Assembly (NCBI GenBank): GCA_024137785.1 | Contig: JAHRHZ010000062.1 | Coordinates: forward strand, 27,142,244 to 27,206,243 | Direction of reading: 5' to 3' | Source: Ginglymostoma cirratum | Taxonomy: Eukaryota | Length of the DNA stretch: 64,000 nucleotides | Shown: positions 8,722-64,000 of the stretch, in pieces | Numbering within the stretch: the first letter of the stretch is position 1 | How the letters are laid out: each line of letters opens with the position of its first letter | The notes under the pieces: generated by a model | The model's input: the letters and a program-made list of their open reading frames with translations, nothing else | What the model was told of the DNA's origin: nothing | The model's database searches: none | Program-made: the position numbers and the translations under genes

Positions 8722-9300
8722 TGACTTGATCATATTAACATGCTACAGGTTATTTGTTGCTCCGGTCTTTGACCTGCAAGCTTAACCTTGTCTAATTAGC
8801 ATGCTATAGGCATTCATTGTTCCAGTCTACAAACTGGGAACCTGACCTTATCCAATTAACATGCTACAGGTACTTACAGCTCCAGTGGATGAGCTGCTTC
8901 ACCTTATCTAATCCACAAGCTGCAGGTATTTACAGCTCCAGTGTATCGGCTGTGAGCGTGTCTTTCTAATTAAAGTGCTACAGGTATTTACTGCGTCGGT
9001 GTATTCGCTGTGAACGTGACCTTATCTAATTAGCATACTGTGAATATTTACTGCACGAGTGTATCAGGTGTGAGCCTGACTTCATCTAATTGAAGTAGTA
9101 CAACTAATTGCTTGCCGATAGTATCAATCCTTAACTTGACTTGATCTAATTAAAATGCTACAATTATCTGCTCCTGCAGTGCATAAATGCCGAATTTCAT
9201 CTGATCTATTTAAAGTGCTGGTATCCACTCTTATGGTCTATCATCACTGATGTGAACATAGGGTGGTTTAACTGAAGTGTTGCAGGTATAAGTATCTCCA
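8722..9300. repeat. Degenerate ~60-bp tandem array, about 10 units
   Basis: TCTAATTA-like anchors at 8730, 8791, 8851, 8907, 8965, 9025, 9085, 9145 and 9205. Approximate unit: TGACCTTATCTAATTARMRTGCTACAGGTATTTACTGCTCCAGTGTATC..CTGTGA. Confidence 0.85.
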
Positions 9301-42124: not shown

Positions 42125-43710
42125 TTGAAGAGAAAAATGAGCTCCCTCTTCCGTGCCTACACTGGCCCTAAATCCCACCTCTTCCTCCATTACATTGATG
42201 ACTGCATCAGCGCCGCCTCGTGCTCCCACGAGGAGCTCGAACAGTTCATCCACTTCACCAACACCTTCCACCCCAACCTGAAGTTCACCTGGACCATCTC
42301 CAACACTTCTCTCTCCTTCCTGGACCTCTCTGTCTCCATCTCGGGTAACCACCTAGAAACCGATGTCCATTTCAAGCCCACTGACTCCCACAGCTACCTG
42401 GAATACACCTCCTCCCACCCACCTTCCTGCAAAAATGCCATCCCCTATTCCCAATTCCTTCGCCTCCGCCGCATCTGCTCCCAGGATGAGACATTCCACT
42501 CCCGTACATCTCAGATGTCCTCATTCTTCAAGGACCGCAACTTCCCCCCAACAGTGGTCGAGAACGCCCTCGACCGTGTCTCCCGCATTTCCCGTAACAC
42601 ATCCCTCACGCCCCGTCCCCACAATAATAACCAAAAAAGAATCCCCCTCGTCCTCACGTACCACCCCACCAACCTCCGGATCCAACGCATCATCCTCCGA
42701 CACTTCCGCCACCTGCAATCAGACCCCACCACCAAAGACATTTTTCCCTCCCCACCCTCATCTGCCTTCCGGAGGGACCACTCCCTCCGCGACTCCCTTG
42801 TCCGCTCCACACTCCCCTCCAGCCCCACCACACCCGGCACTTTTCCCTGCAACCGCAGGAAGTGCTACACCTGCCCCCACACCTCCTCGCTCACCCCAAT
42901 CCCAGGCCCCAAGAAGACTTTCCACATCAGGCAGATGTTCACCTGCACATCTGCCAATGTGGTATACTGCATCCGCTGTACCCGTTGTGGCTTCCTCTAC
43001 ATCGGGGAAACCAAGCGGAGGCTTGGGGACCGCTTTGCAAAACACCTGCGCTCAGTTCGCAACAAACAACTGCACCTCCCAGTCGCGAACCATTTCAACT
43101 CCCCCTCCCATTCCTCAGACGACATGTCCATCCTGGGCCTCCTGCAATGCCACAGTGATGCCACCTGCAGGCTGCAGGAACAGCAAATCATATTCAGCCT
43201 GGGAACCCTGCAGCCCAATGGTATCAATGTGGATTTCACAAGCTTCAAAATCTCCCTTCCCCCAACCGCATCCCAAAACCAGCCCAGCTCATCTCCACCT
43301 CCCTAACCTGTTTTCCCTCTCACCTATCCCCTCCTCCCACCTCAAGCCCCACCCCCATCTCCTATCTACTAACATCATCCCGCCCCCTTGACCTGTCCGT
43401 CCTCCCTGGACTGACCTATCTCCTCCCCTCCCCCCCCACCTACACTCACCTTTACTGGCTCCATCCCCGCCTCTTCAACTTGTCTGCCTCCTCTCCACCT
43501 ATCCTCTCCTCTATCCATCCTCTATCCGCCTCCCTCTCTCTCCCTATTTATTTCAGAACCCTCTTCCCCTCCCCCATTTCTGATGAAGGGTCTAGGCCCA
43601 AAATGTCAAGTTTTCCTGCTCCTATGATGCTGCTTGGCCTGCTGTGTTCATCCAGCCCCACGCCTTTTTATCTCGGATTCTCCAGCATCTGCAGTACCTT
43701 TTATCTCTTC
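42125..43710 (+). mobile_element. Penelope-like retroelement, 5'-truncated: open 393-codon frame (RT C-terminal half, Cys/His linker, GIY-YIG endonuclease) plus 3' terminal repeat
   Basis: ORF 42125-43306 contains HYIDD, FLDL, KPTDSHSYL..SSHP, IPYSQFLRLRRICS, C..C..C, VVYCIRC..C...YIGETKRRLGDRFAKH. It is followed by a C-rich tract and the ctgatgaagggtctaggccc terminal repeat. Confidence 0.95.
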
Positions 43711-50756: not shown

Positions 50757-53700
50757 CTGTTTCCATTTTTAGCCTGACAGGTTCAAAACCAGATGGGTGG
50801 TTGCCTTGTCTGACCTCCATTTATGTTTAAATTCCTGTAACCTATGGTATTGTTCACTGTTTACATTTCCACAGAAAATAGGAGAAAGCATAAGCAGCAA
50901 TGTTGAGTGAATGCTTGCAGTAGAATCAGCATGTGGAGCTCCTTAAAAACCAAGGTGTAGCACAGGGAGTTGTAAAGACAAGGTTGTAAAAACTCTTGTC
51001 AACTATAGATTGATAATATACTGATATTGAAGTTGCAATATGTCTGAAAGTATTATAAATGTAACCTATTACAAAGGAATCTAAAAATAATTTGTATTGT
51101 ACAATATCATTTGTTCTAATATGAAACATTTTTTAAATTGCGTTTTCATTGAAGAAACTCAACTGGCTTATTTAATCATTAGCAATGGTATACTATCAGA
51201 GAACTTTATACAAAGAGATTTCTGTTGGTTTTTTCCAATCATAGCTGACACACTCCTGCTCCACCAGCACAATTAAGGTGATCGTACACTGCAAAAATAT
51301 ACATGTTACATGTGTGTGATTCTTTCACAGCCAACTGCTGGTAGATCCATCAGCCTGATTCATCTTGTTCTGGTGAAGAGAGAGACCCCACTGTTTGGGG
51401 AATTTTGGAATCTGTGGTAGAATCTGCTAATTCTACCTCCTGGCTGGCATCTGGTGGAGAATTAGCACTGAGTGGAAAAAAAATAAGCAGGACAGCAAGA
51501 CGGAAAGCTGGCAGTTTAGTGCTGCTCCCCCGAACACAGGCACAATGAAGATTTTTCTTAAAAACAGTTATTTGAGGCATGCCTTTTTATTACGGAATAG
51601 TCCGAAAATTCATCAACGCCGACACTCCACTTGTGGATCAAACATTTCAACACGTATTGTCATGAAGCTTTTTCCATTGTAACTCTGAAGTAATCATTTC
51701 AAACATTGGAATCAGGATCCAGTGCAGAAGTTGATCATTGTATTAGTGCTCAGATTCCATAGGTTTCCATATACTATCAGCTCTTCAAGTAGAATGCAAG
51801 AGATCAGTTTGTAATGCCAGGAATAAATTGATCACTGCAGTTCCAAGGAGGGCTGCAGAATCCCATCTGTGGTTCCTGTGTCTGGGCCAGATCACATTTG
51901 CAGCTCAAATTGTGCACTGCTGTTCATGTATAATGCTTGTGGAGCCACTTGTACCAAGGTAGAGCACGCTGTATAATAACAAGCTAACTATTGACCATCG
52001 AATACTATTAAGAGTTTGAATATTATTAAAAGTCCATGGTGACTAATTCTCGGCAGTCACTTAATTGTTTACTGTGTTTTGATTGCAGAACTCCTACGGC
52101 TGGAGTATGTACAAAGCCTGAACCATTAGCAACTGAAAGAGATGGGTTTCCTTGTTTCAAGTATAGGTTCAACCGGAAATGACATGTTTGATATCGGTGA
52201 CTAATCCTGTTTACTGGTCCTTATGTAGTGATTACAAGTGTTTGATCCCTCCTTTTACTCTGAGGTGTTTCACCTTCACTTTGGGAAATCACCATGATCA
52301 ATTTGAAGCTAAAAATCTGCAGGACTTCAAAGTCCACCTCTTAATTTTTGAGGAAATCATAAATTGATGCACAAGATGTGGGTCTTAGAGCGAGCTAACT
52401 TAACAGAGAGGGACAGTCTTATGCTGATGCTCATCTATACTTAAGAATATGAGGAGGCATTGCAATCAATTTGACAAATTTATTTGCTTTTCGGCCTTTA
52501 ATCCTGGTACTCATACAGGTGCTGACACTCATCTGAAGAGAAAGAATAGAAGAAATTCAAGACTTATTTTTAGAGAGCTGTGAAAATTATTATGCTGTGA
52601 AAATGTCTGAAATCATTTTTCATGATGATTTATTCTGGGGGTCAGTGAGTGTTGTTTTGCAGACAAAGATGGTAATTAACAACGTCAAATGTCATAATGA
52701 TGTCAGACCTACTGACTCTGCTGAAGAATATTTTTATGTTAGATTCTTGTTTAGTGCAGAGACTTAACTTGCAGTAATTTAAATAATCTGAGCTCTCTTC
52801 TTAACCCCATTTTATAAATGAAAGGCTTTTTTTTTGAGAATGGAGGTAATAAGCAAATATGAGATATTTTTGATCTTATGACTACTTTCGTAAATGTGCA
52901 AATTAAATGATGCAAAAGAAGAATCTAATTTCTGGAACAGTCTAGTTCTTGCTGCACAACATGGTTGTTGCCGTTGCTTTGAACACTGTAGCCTTTCAGA
53001 TCAAAATGGGAGAGGATGAATACAGAGCACAATTGTTCCCAGATATTGCTTCTTCCAGATTTATAGGCCCAGGCTGCCTACCAGAGCTACCCCACAGGGA
53101 TAAAACTCAGTGAGTCAATTTATTTATGCAATATTGCATGTATTTTTTAATGGGGAGGCACACCAGCCTTGCTAAGCATCCTTTGATCTTCTGTCTTTAG
53201 TTTTCAATGTCTGGGTTCCAGCACTGATCTGTGCTGTCAAAAAAAAATACGCAAGACTGCACAAGAAAAAGTTCAACTTGATGAGAACAAGCTGACCCCC
53301 AGCTTCGAAGAAGACTTCAGAGCCCAGGCTTTGATTGTTAGCTACATGCTCTTTATCATAGACCTTGCGACAGAAAGCGGCATTCCAGCAATTCCTGGCC
53401 TGATTCATTACAGCAGGAGAAGATGTTAATTGTTTTCATTGCTGGATACCAATAGTGTGTACTTCATGTCATCTTTTACCTAGCGCTTGCTTTTACGTTT
53501 GCTTTGTAGTGTTGCTTATCAGTGCAGACAGTCTTCTGATCCACCTTTCTAAAGCTGTCAGCCTGAGATAACTCGTCTTCTTTGAATAAACTGCAAACTG
53601 CATCAATAAGGTGACAGAGACAGAATGATCCAAACAATATTATTTTTCTTCTTCCTGGATGATAGTGTTTATTTCTCAAAATTGAGGAGCTAAATATTTT

Positions 53701-54671: not shown

Positions 54672-55668
54672 TCAGAAAATGCTGGAGAAACTCAGCAGGA
54701 CCCTTCTTCAGAAATGGGGGAGGAGGAAGGGAGCTCTGAAATAAATAGAGAGAGGACGGGTTGGGCTGGGGAAGGTAGGTGAGATGGGATAGGTGAGTGC
54801 AGGTAGGCGGTGGTGGGGATTGGTCAGTGAGGTAGGAGGAGCGGATAGGTTGGAGAGAAGATATAAGTCAAGGTGGCGGGGATGAGATGGAGGGTTGGTC
54901 ATGGGATGAGGCCAGGGGTGGGGAGATTTTAAAACTGGTGATGTCCACATTGAGACCGTTGTGTTGTAGGCTCCCAAGGTGGAATATGAGGTGCTGCTCC
55001 TCCAGTTTCCAGGTGGCATTGTTGTGACACCGGAGAAGGCCCAAGATGGACATGTCGTACAGGGAGTGGGAGGGGGAGTTGAAGTGATTCGCGACTGGAA
55101 AGTGTTGTTGTTTGTCGCGAACAGAGCGGAAGTGCTCTACAAAGCAGTGTCCGAGCCTCTGCTTGGTGTCACTGATGTAGAAGAGGCCACATCGGGAGCA
55201 GCGGACACAGTAGCCACATTGGGAGCAGTGGATGTAGCACCACTCCCTACCTGCACTCCCCTTTCACCATCCCACCTAACTTGCCCAGTCCCACCCCTCC
55301 TGTATCTATTTATTTAACAGCTCCCTTCCCCCTCCCCCATTTCTGAAGAAGGGTCCCAACCCGAGAAATGTTAGCTTTCCTGCTCCTCTGATGCTGCCTG
55401 ACCTGCTGTGCTCCTCCAGCTCCACATTGTATTATCTCTGACTCCAGCATCGACAGTTCTTACTATCTCTGAGAAACTCAGCAGGCCTGGCAGTGTGTGT
55501 GGAGAGAAAGAGAGTTAATGTTTTGAGTCTTCAGAACTGAAGAAGAGTCATTGTGTATTGAGACAACTTTGTTTCTCTCTTCGCCCATGCTACGAGAACA
55601 GCTGAACTTTTCCAGCATTTTCTGCATTTGTTTCAGATTTCTGGCATCTGCAGTATTTTGCATTTATA
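54672..55668. mobile_element. PLE with inverted 5' segment (54700-55470) inserted into an older fold-back PLE terminal repeat
   Basis: 15-bp direct repeat GAGAAACTCAGCAGG at 54685-54699 and 55471-55485. Minus-strand GIY-YIG tail (MSILGLLRCHNNATWKLEEQHLIFHLGSLQ) followed by a plus-strand terminal repeat. Confidence 0.85.
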
Positions 55669-55784: not shown

Positions 55785-56394
55785 ACACATATCTAGGTTG
55801 TATCAGAGATAAAAGGTACTGCAGATGCTGGAGAATCCGAGATAACAAGGCGTGGGGCTGGATGAACACAGCAGGCNNNNNNNNNNNNNNNNNNNNNNNN
55901 NNNNNNNNNNNNNNNNNNNNNNNNNNNNNNNNNNNNNNNNNNNNNNNNNNNNNNNNNNNNNNNNNNNNNNNNNNNNNNNNNNNNNNNNNNNNNNNNNNNN
56001 NNNNNNNNNNNNNNNNNNNNNNNNNNNNNNNNNNNNNNNNNNNNNNNNNNNNNNNNNNNNNNNNNNNNNNNNNNNNNNNNNNNNNNNNNNNNNNNNNNNN
56101 NNNNNNNNNNNNNNNNNNNNNNNNNNNNNNNNNNNNNNNNNNNNNNNNNNNNNNNNNNNNNNNNNNNNNNNNNNNNNNNNNNNNNNNNNNNNNNNNNNNN
56201 NNNNNNNNNNNNNNNNNNNNNNNNNNNNNNNNNNNNNNNNNNNNNNNNNNNNNNNNNNNNNNNNNNNNNNNNNNNNGGGCCTAGACCCTGATGAAGGGTC
56301 TAGGCCCGAAACGTCAAGTTTTCCTGCTCCTATGATGCTGCTTGGCCTGCTGTGTTCATCCAGCCCCACGCCTTGTTATCACACATATCTAGGT
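55785..56394. mobile_element. Young fold-back PLE terminal-repeat insertion spanning a 400-N assembly gap (55877-56276)
   Basis: 14-bp direct repeat ACACATATCTAGGT at 55785-55798 and 56381-56394. The sequenced parts of the arms are exact reverse complements. Confidence 0.88.
56288..56319 (+). ncRNA. Minimal hammerhead ribozyme core in PLE terminal repeat
   Basis: CUGAUGA-A-GGGUC(UA)GGCCC-GAAA-CGUC. The same core, with substitutions, occurs at 43580, 49682, 46018, 55343, 60507 and on the minus strand at ~3198-3233 and ~15324-15347. Confidence 0.65.
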
Positions 56395-57330: not shown

Positions 57331-57743
57331 ACATTTTTGATTTGTGCTTTCAATAATGGGAAGACGTCCTTCAGCTCTAGTAAACCCACTCTACTCTGTC
57401 AAAGCATTCTGCTTTAAACTTACTACACCGAGTGTTCTGTTTCATATCAACAGCCATGTGATTGTCTATTTAGTGCAAACTAAAGGCTGCTCTGCTTTGT
57501 GGGCCTTTGAACTTATGATTCACATGTGGCCAAATGGAATAAAAGTTTTGGCAATTATCAATGGAATTTGGGGAGTTGCTGTTTAGTAATTAATCGGTAA
57601 TAAATGTTGATTATGTTAGGACAATATACATGATATTCATTAGTACAGACGCCAATGAAATGTAGTTCCATGTAAGGACCAGCGTTGTTTCCTGAGCAGT
57701 GGTTCTGATTATTTTCATGTGATATGTTTTTTTTTCTCCACAG

Positions 57744-57833
57744 AATCATCTTGTGTTGAGAAGTTTCTCTCAAAGGACTGGAAAGAGAAGATGGCTGGAC
57801 TCAATACAGGGGAGATACTTGGTGAGATCAAAG
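57744..57833 (+). CDS. sox6: Internal coding exon of SoxD transcription factor SOX6 (segment just N-terminal to the coiled coil)
   Basis: Acceptor tttttttttctccacag and donor AAG|gtatgt; 90 nt, phase 1-1. Translation (E)[29 protein letters not shown](G) compared with recalled human SOX6 [31 protein letters not shown]; SOX5 and SOX13 match less well. Confidence 0.9.
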
Positions 57834-57998
57834 GTATGTTGTCAATTTGAATTGATGCTTGACGCTCAGGGGCCAGTAATATTATGAGAAAAAAAAGTTC
57901 CAACGCTAAATAGAGAACAACTAGTGAAACTAATGTTAACTAAATTAATTTCATAGTAATTAGGGGGATTAGGCTTGAAATCCCTTATGGCAGATGGA

Positions 57999-58849: not shown

Positions 58850-59384
58850 CTCACAATGCAGTCCTCAAAATTATCCTGGTCTATTCACTGTCAAATGTCT
58901 CGCATTCCAATTTGTGTTGTCATCTTACAGACAAACATTGGTACCAAGCAACCACTTGATCTACTTTGATGTGAGTTTATGTTCATGATTTAGCCTGTGA
59001 TACACACCCAATCTCCAATTCCCAATCATGGTTCCCTTGCATGTGTTCACTTGTTTAAGTATGCTTTTGCGTTATCTTGTTTTTTGATTTCATCTATTTT
59101 CACATCGACATTGTCTTCAGATAATATTGATGGTTGAAGGATGGTCATCACCATGCAGTCATGAATTTGGCTGGCGTCTTTTTAGTCACTGTGCCCGCTT
59201 TAGATCAATATTTGAAAAGAAGGATATGAATGGATTGTTCAAATGTTTTCCCCTCTGACATGCCACCTCTCAAGACTGTCTATGGTCACACTATTGATTC
59301 ATTCAAAGCAATAATTTGATTGCAGGTTATTTGCGGTGTTGTCTGGTGCCTCTTCAAACAAGTTGCAGGCAGCTCCGACCAGAA
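58850..59384 (-). pseudogene. Gypsy/Ty3 integrase, C-terminal half (decayed)
   Basis: Minus-strand pieces RHQTTP/NLQSN..E*INSV..DSL, SEGKTFEQSIHILLFKY*SKAGTVTKKTPAKFM, KQDNAKAYLNK*THAREP*LGIGDWV and WNARHL correspond to PQSNG.VERFN / LL.YR.TP..TG.SPAELM / GDWV / WNA motifs. Confidence 0.75.
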
Positions 59385-60944
59385 TGTTACCAATGAATGT
59401 GCCCAAGCGTCCCACGTTACCAAAGCGGTCAAATCAATCCGAACGCAAGCTGGTACCAAAGCAAAACTTCCCATTTTATTAGGAACAAAATTACAATCAT
59501 TTTTAGTACTAAACATACTATCCCTAATCCTATTTGGCCACTTACAGTTTCAATACTTCCTGAATTTCTTATAAATTTACACAGTTGCGCTCCCTGTGGC
59601 TCTATCTCTGAGTCTGTGAAGCTGCTTTCGCCCTCTGTCTCTCTGGATAGTCAGCTGGTCTCTACCTCTTGCCGTACTGGTGTCTTCAAAAGGCCTCCGA
59701 CGACTCCAAGAGTGGTTCTAAGAAAGAGGTCTGCAGTGAACTCCGTTTTTATATGTTTTAGATGGTTTTCTGGAACTTCCTGCATTTCTGACCAAGCAGG
59801 GAGATACCACTCTCCCCACAACTCCCTTGTCTGCTCCACAGTCCCCACTAACCCTATCACATCCAGTACCAGACCCTACAACAGCAGGGAGTGCTAAAAC
59901 CTACCCCTACATCTCCCCCATCACCTCCATTCAAAGCCCAAAGCAAACCTTTCATATCCAAGAGGGGTTCACCTGTACATCCATCAACTAGGTCTACTGT
60001 ATCTGCTGCTCCCGATGTAGCCTCCTCTACATTGGTGAGACCAAGTGTAGACTTGGAGACCATTTCATAGAGCATCTGCGCTCTGTACATGACAAACGAC
60101 AACGCCTTCTGATTGCCAACCATTTCAACTCCCCCTCCCACTCACTGGGTGAAATGTCCATCTTGGGCCTCCTCCAGTATCACAATGAAATCACCCGCAA
60201 ACTGGAGGAGCAACACCACATATTCTGCCTCGGGAGCCTACAGCCTGATGGTTTAAATTTGGAATTCACCGGTTTAAAATCTCCCCAATCCCGGCCCCAT
60301 CCTATGTCCAACCCTCCGTCTCATCCCCACCTCCTTAACCTGTCATAACCTGTCCATCTTCTCTACCACCTATCCATCCCACCCATTCCACTGACTAATC
60401 CCCACCACTCCCTACCTGCACTCACCTATTACCATCCCACCTACCTTCCCTGGCCCCACCCCTCCTCTGTCTATTTATTTCCCAGCTCCCTCGCACCTCC
60501 CTATTTCTGAAGAAGAGTCCTGACCGAAAAGTCAACTTTCCTGTTCCTCTGGTGCCGCCTGGCCCGCTGTGTTCCTCCAGCTCCACACTGGGTTGTCTCT
60601 AACACCAGCATCTGCAGTTCTTGCTATCTCATGGAGATACACTTCATAGTTTGTAACAAGAGTTAATCATTTAGATGGCATGTTACCATCTTTCTGTAGC
60701 AGAACCGGGTGCCTTTCTGTCTGGCTGTCCTTTGTTCAGTGGATAAGTTGTTGGGGGGGTCTGTGCAGACTAACTGTTGCCTTTTACATTAGGCGAATGT
60801 CATTAGCCCCTGACTGCTGTGTTTGCATTGTGTGTGATCTGTGGGTTTTGTGATTTCCGGGTTTCACTTGGCCAATGTACCCAGCATCCCTTGCTGTATA
60901 GCTAAGTTGGCAATCTGTGCTTTAGCACCCAGGAGGCTGCTACA
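59385..60944 (-). mobile_element. Retroviral-type LTR (~730 bp net), split by a PLE
   Basis: Starts TGTAG at 60944 immediately after polypurine tract AAAATGGGGGGAA (60957-60945). TATAAAA at 59753-59747, AATAAA at 59480-59475; ends ...GTAACA at 59385. Confidence 0.7.
59800..60640 (+). mobile_element. 5'-truncated PLE (GIY-YIG region plus terminal repeat)
   Basis: Colinear with 42770-43710 (VYCICCSRCSLLYIGETK; MSILGLLQYHNEITRKLEEQH). GGAGATAC is repeated at 59800-59807 and 60633-60640. Confidence 0.9.
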
Positions 60945-61099
60945 TTCCCCCCATTTTGCCCAGAAAAAAGCTAATGCAAATAAAGTTCAAACCTAATTAT
61001 GAAAGTTGGTTATGTTTGTTGTCAGGGGAGCCTACATGTCCATGTGGAAACCATTATGTACATTGGTCAAGCTTATCATATTAATATATGTACAAGAAA

Positions 61100-62270
61100 G
61101 AAAGTAAACTCCTTTTGCAACAATCCATACAGGATTATAGTGCATAGACAACATTAAGCAATCAGAACAAGTAAAAGTGATAATAGTACTCACCCCGGGA
61201 TTCTACCTTAAATTCCTATGTGCTGGAGCAGTATTATTCATAGTAAGTGTGCCAATCTCTTGGGATATTTGCCTTTCCCAGCATGCAGTCTTAACTGCCA
61301 GTATCCTGAGGTATAGAACGGTGATCGCAATTAAGACCACAACAAGATATGAGAGGAGCCACATTCATGGATGACAGGCTAGGGGTACAATGGCATGGCC
61401 TGCTTGTTCGTATTTACTTAAAAGTGGCCCTATCAATGTCCCCTGTCTTTCCACAGCATATAGAAGAGTGTCATGGTAACCCATCTAAATACCTTTTCTT
61501 TATAATTCTGATACTTTGACTTCAAGGGTCCTCAACCCAATTTTGTCACTAGAGATAATTAGAATCCCTAGCATCAAGCCCAGCGCCTGACCAAAAGTGT
61601 CCTTGCAGTTGTCATTATACCACACCTTAGTGAGTGAGCCACCATCGCTGACAACTAGAGATGTTAGTGTGAGTTCTCTCCTGGAACAGATTTTTAAGCT
61701 GTTCACAGTCAGTGTCATACAGTGCACATTACTGATCCAGAATGGGACTTGCCCTGGGCTACTCTGTCTGGGATCCTCCCTCAGCTATTCAATCATCCAG
61801 TTTCTGTAGCTGCTGCACAGGGTGCAGTTTTCCTGCTCATTGTCATCCCTGATTTTGCCCTGGATGATCTGCTTTATCATCTTGGCGTGACCCCCTAGTA
61901 TGATCACTTAGCAGTGGCTAGCCTGATTCTCCGTAGGTATCCTGTAATCTCTTATTGATTGTATTTAGTCCTTCTAGGGCTCATTTGACTTGTTGGTTCA
62001 AGATCCTGAGTTTATTTTCCAAAATAGCCAAATCAAGGGTATTGACCATTTGTCACCCCTGCCCCATATGCTGTGGCCAGATCATCAGACCCTTTTCTTT
62101 CCTCTATTAAAAGCAAAGGGTGTCCCATCTATACATACCATGATGTCTGGTGGGTTGTACCACCGGTATCCTGGGTACATAATTTTCCCTTGTTCCTGCG
62201 CGACACTTTTGGATACAGCCATTACAATAATATATAATACACAATAAATGCTCTGTAAGGGTTGCGTCAT
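61100..62270 (-). pseudogene. Decayed env-like (class I fusion glycoprotein) gene
   Basis: Signal-like IYCVLYIIVMAVS; basic cleavage site RGKKR; fusion-peptide-like DLATAYGAGV; heptad VNTLDLAILENKLRILNQQVK*ALEGLNTIN; CSSYRNW...GQVPFWISN; TM-like VLLSLLLVLIA*CCLCTIILYGLL. Several frameshifts and stops. Lies directly upstream of the PPT-LTR. Confidence 0.6.
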
Positions 62271-62274
62271 TGTT

Positions 62275-64000
62275 TTGGAGCAGTTGTTATCAAAGAATGC
62301 AAGTTCATTGCATACTCTTGTGTGGAACCAGTTCTTCCTTTAATTCTTAAGACCACTGAGTTTTAGGTACCGGCATTTTTGCAATATACTGTCTATTGCG
62401 AATTCATCCTTTAAACCCTCCTGTTTAAGAATAGGTACAGTTGTGTCTGAAATCACAGTTTCCAATAACCTCTCTATTGCTAATACTGTATGAGATAATA
62501 GTATGACTAAACATGATGGCTACTCAGCTGCACCACACTCTGAGATACCCAACCTCAAATTTGTACTGATGAAGATGATCTGCCATCTACAGATCTGCAG
62601 GGATCAAAGCCCTAATCCTGATGAACTAGTCAACACTTGTGACTGTTGCAGAGATTGAATTTTCTGCCATAAAGATATATGTGCCAATGTTCACAAGTAT
62701 AGGTGCAAGATAAGATCTCCCAATTTTCAGTAGCATATTTGCAATTTCCAGCAATGCTCATGATGTATATATAAATGATTGGTAATTTCCTTCCTTCAGT
62801 CCACGGTGAGAGTACAGCTCCTCTCACGTTTCTTAGTACATTTTTTGTGACATATGATTCAGAAGGTGGATTAGAATGTGTAAGGATTGACAGAGATACT
62901 GTCTTCACCTTTAACATGTCAATGATGTTTGCAGCGCATTTGCACATTCCAATTGCGCATCTTCACATAGTAACAATTGAAGTGACTAAGCAATCTTTGC
63001 ATTGGTATGATTGAATTTGTGAGGAGCTCTGTGGTACAATGGCAGTGCCCCACCTCTGAGCCAGGAGGTCTGGGTTCAAGTTGCGTAGTAACAGCGCTGA
63101 ACAGATTGATTAGAAAATGCATACAAAAAAAGAACAAATTTGTAATGAAAGTCAGTGGAACCAAGCAACAATGCCAACCCGTTCACTTTAGACAGGGTCA
63201 GAAGTGCATGAATAACTCAGATGTTGTCACCTCTAGCTGCCACTCCTGTTGCTGTCACTGTACCATGAGAAGTTAGTCTGGGATGCTGCAGATGTAGAGT
63301 GTTAAATTGCGTTCAAGTGAAGTGAGAACTGCTGATTGTGTGCTGCTTTGTCCTTTCCATGGACAAGGATGATATCCCATCAATATATGACAAGCATTTA
63401 GAAATGATCGTCTGAAATATGGTAGGTGTGAACTTAGTCTGTCAGTGATACTGCAGTACTGGAAAACACCTCTGTGAGTAACGAAAGCTGTAACATATCA
63501 ACTTGCTTCACTAGTGACGATTAAAGATCGTTTCATTGTATGTTGAGCTGTATGAAAACTAGTATATTCATGAGAATATGCTGATAATCCTTGGATCGTG
63601 TAAAATGGATAATATCTGCAACAATTGATTTGTTGACTGGCTGAAGGTTGACACATGGACTAAGTTTGTCAACTTATACACCCTGCAATGACTGGGTTCC
63701 AAACCCACAGTGGTAAATTGATTCACTCAATTTTTTGATCTACTTCAAGAAACTTGTGATATTGCAGTCCGTGATATTAGTGCCCACATCACAATTAGCG
63801 ACCATCTCAAAGTTTGCATAATTGGCGGAATTAATATGTCAATATAAGGTGAATAAACCGTTTAAACACCACCAATACAGGAAATAAAGGATCTTGTTGG
63901 CTTTAGAAAATGTCATGTAAATCATGACAGTGATCATGTAAATATACTAACCAGTCAAGTCTTCAAGTTTGAAGTAAAACCTATGAAAATGGTTTGTGTC
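62275..64000 (-). pseudogene. Gypsy/Ty3 pol relic: RT, RNase H and linker
   Basis: CVNLQPVNKSIVAD; YVTAFVTHRGVFQYC; DIILVHGKDKAAHNQ; ORF 62630-62947 GAVLS...KYATE..EIL.C...CEHWHIYLYGRKF.L..H; ICRW.DHLHQYKFEV.Y; RVCNELA. Confidence 0.85.
63014..63143 (+). mobile_element. Short tRNA-derived SINE inserted in the Gypsy pol
   Basis: gtggtacaatggcag (A-box-like) and ggttcaagt (B-box-like), A-rich tail, flanking AATTTGT duplication (63014-63020, 63137-63143). A related fragment lies at ~40520-40590. Confidence 0.65.

Follow-up and report, generated by a model that had tools for sequence, protein, structure and literature searches.

A dead, twice-deleted endogenous retrovirus of Ginglymostoma cirratum with a probable F-type Env

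Introduction

Lokiretroviruses are defined by their reverse transcriptase (RT) and carry an F-like Env (PMC7947760, available text); in the same source and in the accessible part of PMC9040795, no similarity between lokiretrovirus and canonical Env is reported and independent gains are preferred. The six chondrichthyan genomes in the available portion of PMC7947760 are without the mark taken here as 'positive' for lokiretroviruses. In the class Ia/Ib scheme given with the structure of foamy Env, orthoretrovirus Env belongs to class Ia (PMC11468914, in excerpt); F-like proteins are described in Metaviridae, and more are expected in Retroviridae (PMC12583693, in excerpt); epsilonretrovirus Env is given as uncharacterised, with a distinct predicted structure (PMC3758190, in excerpt). 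As far as the accessible texts go, endogenous retroviruses (ERVs) related to snakehead retrovirus (SnRV), clade Huo, are widespread (PMC6001957, PMC12193657, PMC4131045), and lineage I of CmiERV from the elephant shark clusters with SnRV (PMC4422223). The available texts of bioRxiv 2023.10.26.564294, PMC13709493 and PMC11521997 make no mention of SnRV Env, and in the literature searched (largely open-access main texts) no Env of the SnRV clade or of epsilonretroviruses was found to be called F-type.

The present work concerns a stretch of 64,000 nucleotides of Ginglymostoma cirratum DNA (assembly GCA_024137785.1, contig JAHRHZ010000062.1, positions 27,142,244 to 27,206,243; the window), in which an initial annotation, made from the sequence alone, had proposed a lokiretrovirus-like or otherwise unclassified F-type env. 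The locus is read here, with good though not full confidence, as a dead 5'-truncated, pol-less and twice-deleted ERV from an early canonical branch near SnRV, with an Env that is likely F-type (class Ib).

Results and Discussion

Structure of the relic. The env relic, the polypurine tract (PPT) and the 3' LTR span 62283–59337 on the minus strand of the G. cirratum window, as follows:

62120–62283, minus strand: 5' edge of the relic and start of env; 62283 is where similarity to other copies starts.
62108–62123, minus strand: join of deletion 1; ca. 490 bp, ca. 165 surface-subunit codons, gone.
62091–62105, minus strand: basic furin-type site RGKKR; other copies, like Mustelus P0015, have a K/R-rich site at the equivalent position.
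61387–62090, minus strand: transmembrane subunit, first part; read in three frames, 47–55% identical to individual relatives.
61373–61387, minus strand: join of deletion 2; ca. 495 bp gone, with the late ectodomain, the second heptad region and the Trp-rich membrane-proximal stretch.
61203–61373, minus strand: membrane anchor (61358–61293) and tail; weak match to P0017 residues 205–250 (E 0.008).
60945–60957, minus strand: PPT; precedes the 3' LTR likewise in 6 of 7 two-LTR copies (the seventh read at an offset).
60633–60944, minus strand: 3' LTR, first 312 bp; begins TGTAGCAGCC (TG at 60944).
59808–60632, plus strand: later insertion inside the LTR, 825 bp; 8-bp duplication at 60640–60633 and 59807–59800.
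59337–59807, minus strand: 3' LTR, remainder; AATAAA at 59480; terminates ...ACAACA at 59337.

The first Met of env in the window copy lies at 62270 and the leader (hydrophobic, signal-peptide-like) at 62249–62214; the first listed feature also holds the first ca. 25 codons of the surface subunit, residues 1–24 of L103 aligning to 62180–62109. A G/A-rich peptide (62086–62054) is read in a frame other than that of RGKKR, and the Cys/Trp motifs are CSSYRNW (61817–61797) and GQVPFWIS (61754–61731). The segment 61387–62090 contains a fusion-peptide-like stretch, a heptad region, these motifs and the start of a beta-rich region, interrupted by frameshifts and stops, and is the region that aligns with lokiretrovirus, walleye dermal sarcoma virus (walleye) and SnRV Env and with paramyxovirus F. 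Leader, RGKKR, G/A-rich peptide, Cys/Trp motifs, TM-like stretch and PPT were all located on the minus strand where the initial annotation had placed them. The long ectodomain it described is present in part, ca. 495 bp being lost near 61387/61373; its TG..CA LTR does begin with TG at 60944, but ends at 59337 instead of 59385 and is interrupted by the 825-bp insertion. The frameshift-aware translation it called for recovers env, though as no open gene, because the reading shifts among three frames and meets at least six stops inside the aligned parts; the relic makes no working protein.

Both LTR parts are contiguous in other copies; the LTR end was set by the flanks of 7 copies, the length without the insertion is ca. 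775 bp, and the first part is 82–86% identical to the 39 best other copies. The inserted 825 bp are likely a truncated Penelope-type element (GIY-YIG match, E 0.037, short of the cut-off). Related fragments, likely Penelope-type and GIY-YIG-bearing, were noted at 42869–43285, 54698–55443 and 59808–60632 of the window, in both orientations. Upstream of the relic, 30 kb of sequence gave no match to gag, to the region before env or to a 5' LTR. The window also has exon-like frames (57715–57850, plus strand; 51350–51586; 53187–53435; no Pfam match), and the relic may therefore sit, in antisense orientation, within an intron of a gene on the plus strand. Also observed in the window were a unit of ca. 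59 bases in five tandem copies (8785–9082) and 400 N inside a repeat (55877–56276).

The family in its own genome. At least 60 matches to the window env (69–84% identity; 40 of 122 candidates scored) were obtained in the same genome, so that the env relic is not a chance reading; the LTR gave 629 first-look candidates (40 scored). The other genomic copies whose absence was to speak against the initial annotation thus exist for both env and LTR, and the window locus is a 5'-truncated member of a family with many copies. Gag ends less than 450 bp from env in 15 of the 17 copies fetched around the best matches, and these 15 are therefore pol-less; most of the close copies have the form LTR-gag-env-LTR.

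Deletion 1: the block is present as 487 bp extra in L070 and 494 bp in L024; 10 of 12 copies lacking the block bridge the join, and none of the 3 that carry it. Deletion 2: ca. 498 bp extra in L070 and ca. 492 bp in L107; here 15 of 16 copies lacking the block bridge the join, and again none of the 3 that carry it. Since the joins are common to so many copies, each deletion arose once and was then amplified. A 570-bp block in L027, L032, L034 and L037 was also considered as deletion 2 and ruled out, being absent only from L020. L103 has 195 codons between MYPGY and the basic site and the window 25, from which an intact first subunit of ca. 225 residues follows; the second has ca. 450 (P0018). 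The first subunit of ca. 55 codons before RGKKR in the initial annotation is accordingly a real stretch of the window, but as a native layout it dissolves into a deletion join near 62120/62110; the alternative mentioned there, shortening by deletion, is borne out by the ca. 490 bp extra in fuller copies, and the F2/F1-like layout falls away as an argument for an F-type protein.

The copies form nested classes: pol and whole env (L102–L104, L107); env whole but pol gone (L070); env short of its late ectodomain (L064–L068, L164, L174); both deletions (the window copy and most of L162–L178). This nesting suggests an order of loss. TG..CA ends mark seven copies that have both LTRs, and the 4-bp duplication of the target is exact in 3 of them, has one mismatch in 3 and is unclear in 1. 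Their LTR–LTR distances of 0.09–0.19 correspond to 21–44 million years at a mammalian rate and, with the shark rate that the accessible part of PMC4422223 assumes, to tenfold that range, and because of this tenfold difference the age of the family is poorly fixed. A putative primer site directly after the 5' LTR (L162–L177) starts TGG(C/T)GTCCCTG-like and resembles tRNA-Asn in its first 11 bases only; as only 7–13 of 18 bases match in 10 copies, tRNA-Asn is no more than a candidate primer.

Annotated relatives of env come from the shark genera Heptranchias, Heterodontus, Chiloscyllium, Pristiophorus and Mustelus, five in all, and also from Scyliorhinus. One of them, P0006 (Heterodontus fbxo15 isoform X3), is annotated as an F-box protein, its C-terminal 190 residues being env of the shark family; the gene model may be in error, or else a provirus has been exonised. 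Fusions of a similar sort are P0024 and P0027 from Pristiophorus. L007 and L008 (G000:C222, 58 kb apart) are near-identical proviral loci including their flanks, a segmental or assembly duplicate.

Pol of the parent virus. Pol domains followed by env of the shark family were found in 8 loci (2 of 20 and 6 of 20 stretches in two fetched sets), with the order gag, RT, tether, RH, integrase, env in L099 and L107. RT, RNase H-like and integrase matches were found in the parent loci (RT not found in 3 of the 8). Shark Gag has a CCHC knuckle (E 0.006); the best PDB match of the integrase is PFV; pol contains a dual RNase H (tether and RH), which is not diagnostic for lokiretroviruses, SnRV having both. 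At L098, L100, L101, L105, L109, L110, L112 and L113 there are pol relics that belong to the same RT clade but for which hardly any env, or none, was detected in the stretch fetched; these are possibly env-less sister families.

By identity, SnRV is the closest RT reference in 13 of 13 shark rows (31–52%), and the motifs LP(Q/K)GF..SP and QYVDD are those of SnRV; lokiretrovirus rows have CPFGY.NSP. In the outgroup RT tree (like the first, built without ERV-L, ERV-S, CmiERV and fish foamy-like ERV references), nine shark rows, five of them env-linked, form a clade (97/85) with four intact Pol (coelacanth, Xenopus, two others); this clade sits inside the canonical retroviruses (98.7/100), with lokiretroviruses outside, and epsilonretroviruses join gamma/delta (97.1/99). 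AU test with outgroups: rejected, shark + lokiretroviruses (0.0017), shark + SnRV + lokiretroviruses (0.019), shark outside all (0.016); retained, shark + SnRV (0.66), shark + foamy (0.125). AU test without outgroups: SnRV (0.46) and lokiretroviruses (0.59) both retained; epsilon (0.002) and gamma (0.012) rejected. SnRV as sister is unsupported (21.6/42 in the first RT tree; 17.6/34, in an alternative order, in the outgroup tree).

Shark tether and integrase are 29–38% and 31–43% identical, respectively, to those of lokiretroviruses and 17–30% to those of SnRV; both are closest to lokiretroviruses in all shark rows (integrase 8 of 8), RH is mixed, and Pol after RT scores best with lokiretroviruses in 8 of 8 loci. 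The tether, RH and integrase trees do not resolve and contain no supported join of shark and lokiretrovirus rows. One relative, P0029, is named NYNRIN-like (tested feature: integrase grouping lokiretroviruses/CGIN1). Of the traits of canonical retroviruses, an RT inside the clade, gag-pol-env order, a TG..CA LTR, a PPT, a primer site and a short target duplication were found, and the shark ERV is likely an early branch among them. The tree of the linked RT that had been suggested for the locus thus leads to the canonical clade and away from the lokiretroviruses.

Type of the Env protein. ISD and CX6CC are absent from all 32 shark Env rows and both present in 11 of 11 gamma controls; on its motifs shark Env is not gamma-type, in agreement with the initial annotation, and its second subunit is long (ca. 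450 residues in P0018).

Database searches: Pfam on env pieces, no match; PF00523, no shark Env row matched; word-based protein search with the env stretch, 0 of 1,071 candidates; PDB, queried with the sequence and with a profile (HMMER), no fusion protein and hence no F; the own genome scanned with PF00523 and PF12259, 0 matches, with the positive controls silent too; P0006 against Baculo_F, E 0.0011. ESM Atlas (P0018): best clusters Baculo_F (0.94) and Fusion_gly (0.93), also gypsy Env (all three kinds 0.91–0.94), 10 of 10 best clusters lying in one clan; the score is weakened by the low recognition value (1641). SnRV Env 500–1010 gave F-type clusters as P0018 did. The SnRV env (L116:6131–9535) has as its best Atlas cluster a 545-aa chordate family of 820 members without a name, and an Ig-domain-like Cys-Trp-Tyr-x-Cys spacing was seen by eye at the N-terminus of SnRV Env.

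Two structure models of shark Env were obtained, both of low confidence (pLDDT 53 and 46). Foldseek against PDB with the second: ranks 1–10, RSV F, foamy Env and hMPV F (E 0.04–0.2); ranks 18–19, measles and Langya F; no match at E 0.001, TM-scores ca. 0.1. BFVD: model 1, torovirus spike (E 4e-4, TM 0.15) and F proteins (E 0.04–0.3); model 2, no match. VIA: coiled coils only, in both searches.

Profile alignment (hhalign) of the shark Env profile (A4) gave: lokiretrovirus Env, probability 81–83%, E 1e-5, 204–290 columns, 0 of 44 shuffles; walleye Env, 55%, E 1.2e-4, 378 columns, 0 of 44 shuffles, over residues 481–895 (L286) from cleavage site to anchor with matching Cys/Trp motifs; SnRV Env, 27%, E 7e-4, 299 columns, 0 of 56 shuffles, marginal without context pseudocounts; foamy Env, 17%, 138 columns; paramyxovirus F, 7–8%, 270 columns; gamma Env, 2%, 41 columns; delta Env, 1%, 39 columns. 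None of the local shuffles (n 33–56, six sets) reached the real score, the gamma set (33 shuffles) included. Among themselves the five long-matching sets have no direct match (probability ≤6%), and with HMMER or BLAST shark Env gave no significant match to SnRV Env; lokiretrovirus Env itself matches PF00523. From the ESM Atlas, Foldseek on a poor model and the profile alignments, shark Env is probably an F-type (class Ib) fusion protein, with lokiretrovirus Env as its best profile match; 'otherwise unclassified F-type env' is the part of the initial proposal that holds. The walleye alignment suggests that epsilonretrovirus Env, too, may be F-type.

Comparison with described systems. SnRV resembles the shark ERV in having the closest RT, the same RT motifs, a CCHC Gag and a dual RNase H, and its Env likewise lacks CX6CC, aligns weakly over 299 columns and is F-type in the Atlas; it differs in the unsupported sister grouping, in tether and integrase (the shark ones being much closer to lokiretroviruses), in Env length (ca. 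1,100 versus ca. 680 residues) and in the primer site. Lokiretroviruses (lokiorterviruses) share an F-like Env with profile homology, a well-kept tether and a similar integrase, but their RT lies outside the clade, the first Env subunit of the shark family is about twice as long as theirs, and no lokiretrovirus is reported from the host class of the shark family. With walleye dermal sarcoma virus the 378-column Env alignment and Cys/Trp motifs are in common; unlike the shark family, epsilonretroviruses have an Env of 1,229 residues, and the RT grouping with them is rejected (0.002). Foamy Env and paramyxo-/pneumovirus F share with shark Env a Cys-rich beta region between two heptad regions and a long second subunit; this similarity is near the detection limit, and the extra domain of the shark protein would be N-terminal to the F2-like part.

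Alternative readings. The tether and integrase identities, together with lokiretrovirus Env as best match, would also fit an old recombination that joined an SnRV-like canonical RT to lokiretrovirus tether, integrase and env, repeated domain swaps being on record (Wang and Han, PMC7947760, available text). The pattern recurs in the relatives from coelacanth and Xenopus and is therefore old and lineage-wide; the tether and integrase trees give no supported join, slow evolution from a common ancestor accounts for the identities, and shark Env matches walleye and SnRV Env as well, so that a mosaic is considered unlikely. That the family represents a true lokiretrovirus, the first in cartilaginous fish, agrees with the F-like Env closest to that of lokiretroviruses, with the dual RNase H, with the similar tether and integrase and with the AU test without outgroup; it is nevertheless held to be highly improbable, since the AU test with outgroups rejects it, the RT motifs are of the SnRV type, the first subunit has ca. 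225 residues versus ca. 115 in lokiretrovirus L157, and SnRV has the dual RNase H as well. In the accessible part of PMC7947760, moreover, Orectolobiformes score 0 of 3, yet Chiloscyllium punctatum holds the shark env.

The weak structure models, the coiled coils found by VIA, the HMMER result and the probability of 7–8% for paramyxovirus F would be expected if Env were a separate kind of class I protein, matching F through long helices and composition. We regard this as very unlikely: the lokiretrovirus, walleye and foamy alignments lie mostly in the beta-/Cys-rich region and not in helices, three methods converge on one family, and composition-preserving local shuffles score far lower. An origin from a foamy-like ERV, to which the PFV integrase match, the second place of foamy Env in Foldseek and the AU value of 0.125 point, hardly deserves credence, RT identity to foamy being lower than to SnRV in 13 of 13 rows and Env having ca. 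680 versus ca. 990 residues; the shark Gag also carries a CCHC knuckle, which foamy Gag is not known to have.

Proposed history. On the preferred reading, an early canonical branch near SnRV, the parent Env of ca. 680 residues would have been cut by furin after ca. 225, the N-terminal ca. 120 residues binding the receptor and the ca. 100 residues before the cut acting as F2; in the ca. 450-residue second subunit the fusion peptide would insert, the two heptad regions fold back and the membranes fuse. Pol would have been lost before the late ectodomain and most of the surface subunit last. The short LTR-gag-env-LTR forms would have retained LTRs, primer site and PPT and have been copied in trans by parent enzymes, probably in germ cells; the window copy would afterwards have lost its 5' part and taken up the Penelope-type insertion.

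Experimental

References: Motif searches supplied SnRV (L116), genomes of gamma-, delta-, epsilon- and foamy viruses, three lokiretrovirus-type contigs and, as outgroups, four gypsy/caulimovirus-type sequences. The labels of PFV, of the delta and outgroup sequences and of 24 paramyxovirus F rows are provisional and were assigned with the help of motifs. The labels SnRV, WDSV, MuLV, FLV, KoRV, REV, BFV, EFV and SFV were given by RT rows matched in the accessible portion of the PMC7947760 supplement; the lokiretrovirus label was given by motifs, likeness to the RT rows available from PMC7947760 and the PF00523 match of lokiretrovirus Env.

Trees: The RT rows from the shark are degraded, and a relative served as their anchor. 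Eight reference/database rows were dropped as redundant from the no-outgroup tree and four short shark rows from the outgroup tree; the RH and integrase trees contain spurious rows of loki3, whose frame ends earlier, and these were ignored.

Conclusion

The family is best described as an SnRV-adjacent shark ERV with a probable F-type Env. For the reading of ERV relics it carries a warning: a deletion can create an F2/F1-like layout. The shark Env profile links lokiretrovirus, epsilonretrovirus, SnRV and foamy Env and paramyxovirus F, and a virus of the canonical clade whose Env aligns with the four retroviral ones makes a single ancient F-type Env testable. That F-type Env was the ancestral envelope of all retroviruses, with the gamma/beta type a later replacement and epsilonretroviruses and SnRV in class Ib, is put forward tentatively, at somewhat less than even chances; if true, it would go against the preferred view of independent Env gains in lokiretroviruses and canonical retroviruses, and the shark lineage would stand at the base of the canonical retroviruses with a lokiretrovirus-like tether and integrase retained. 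Taken alone, the locus is an ordinary fossil; what bears on the origin of retroviral Env is the family.
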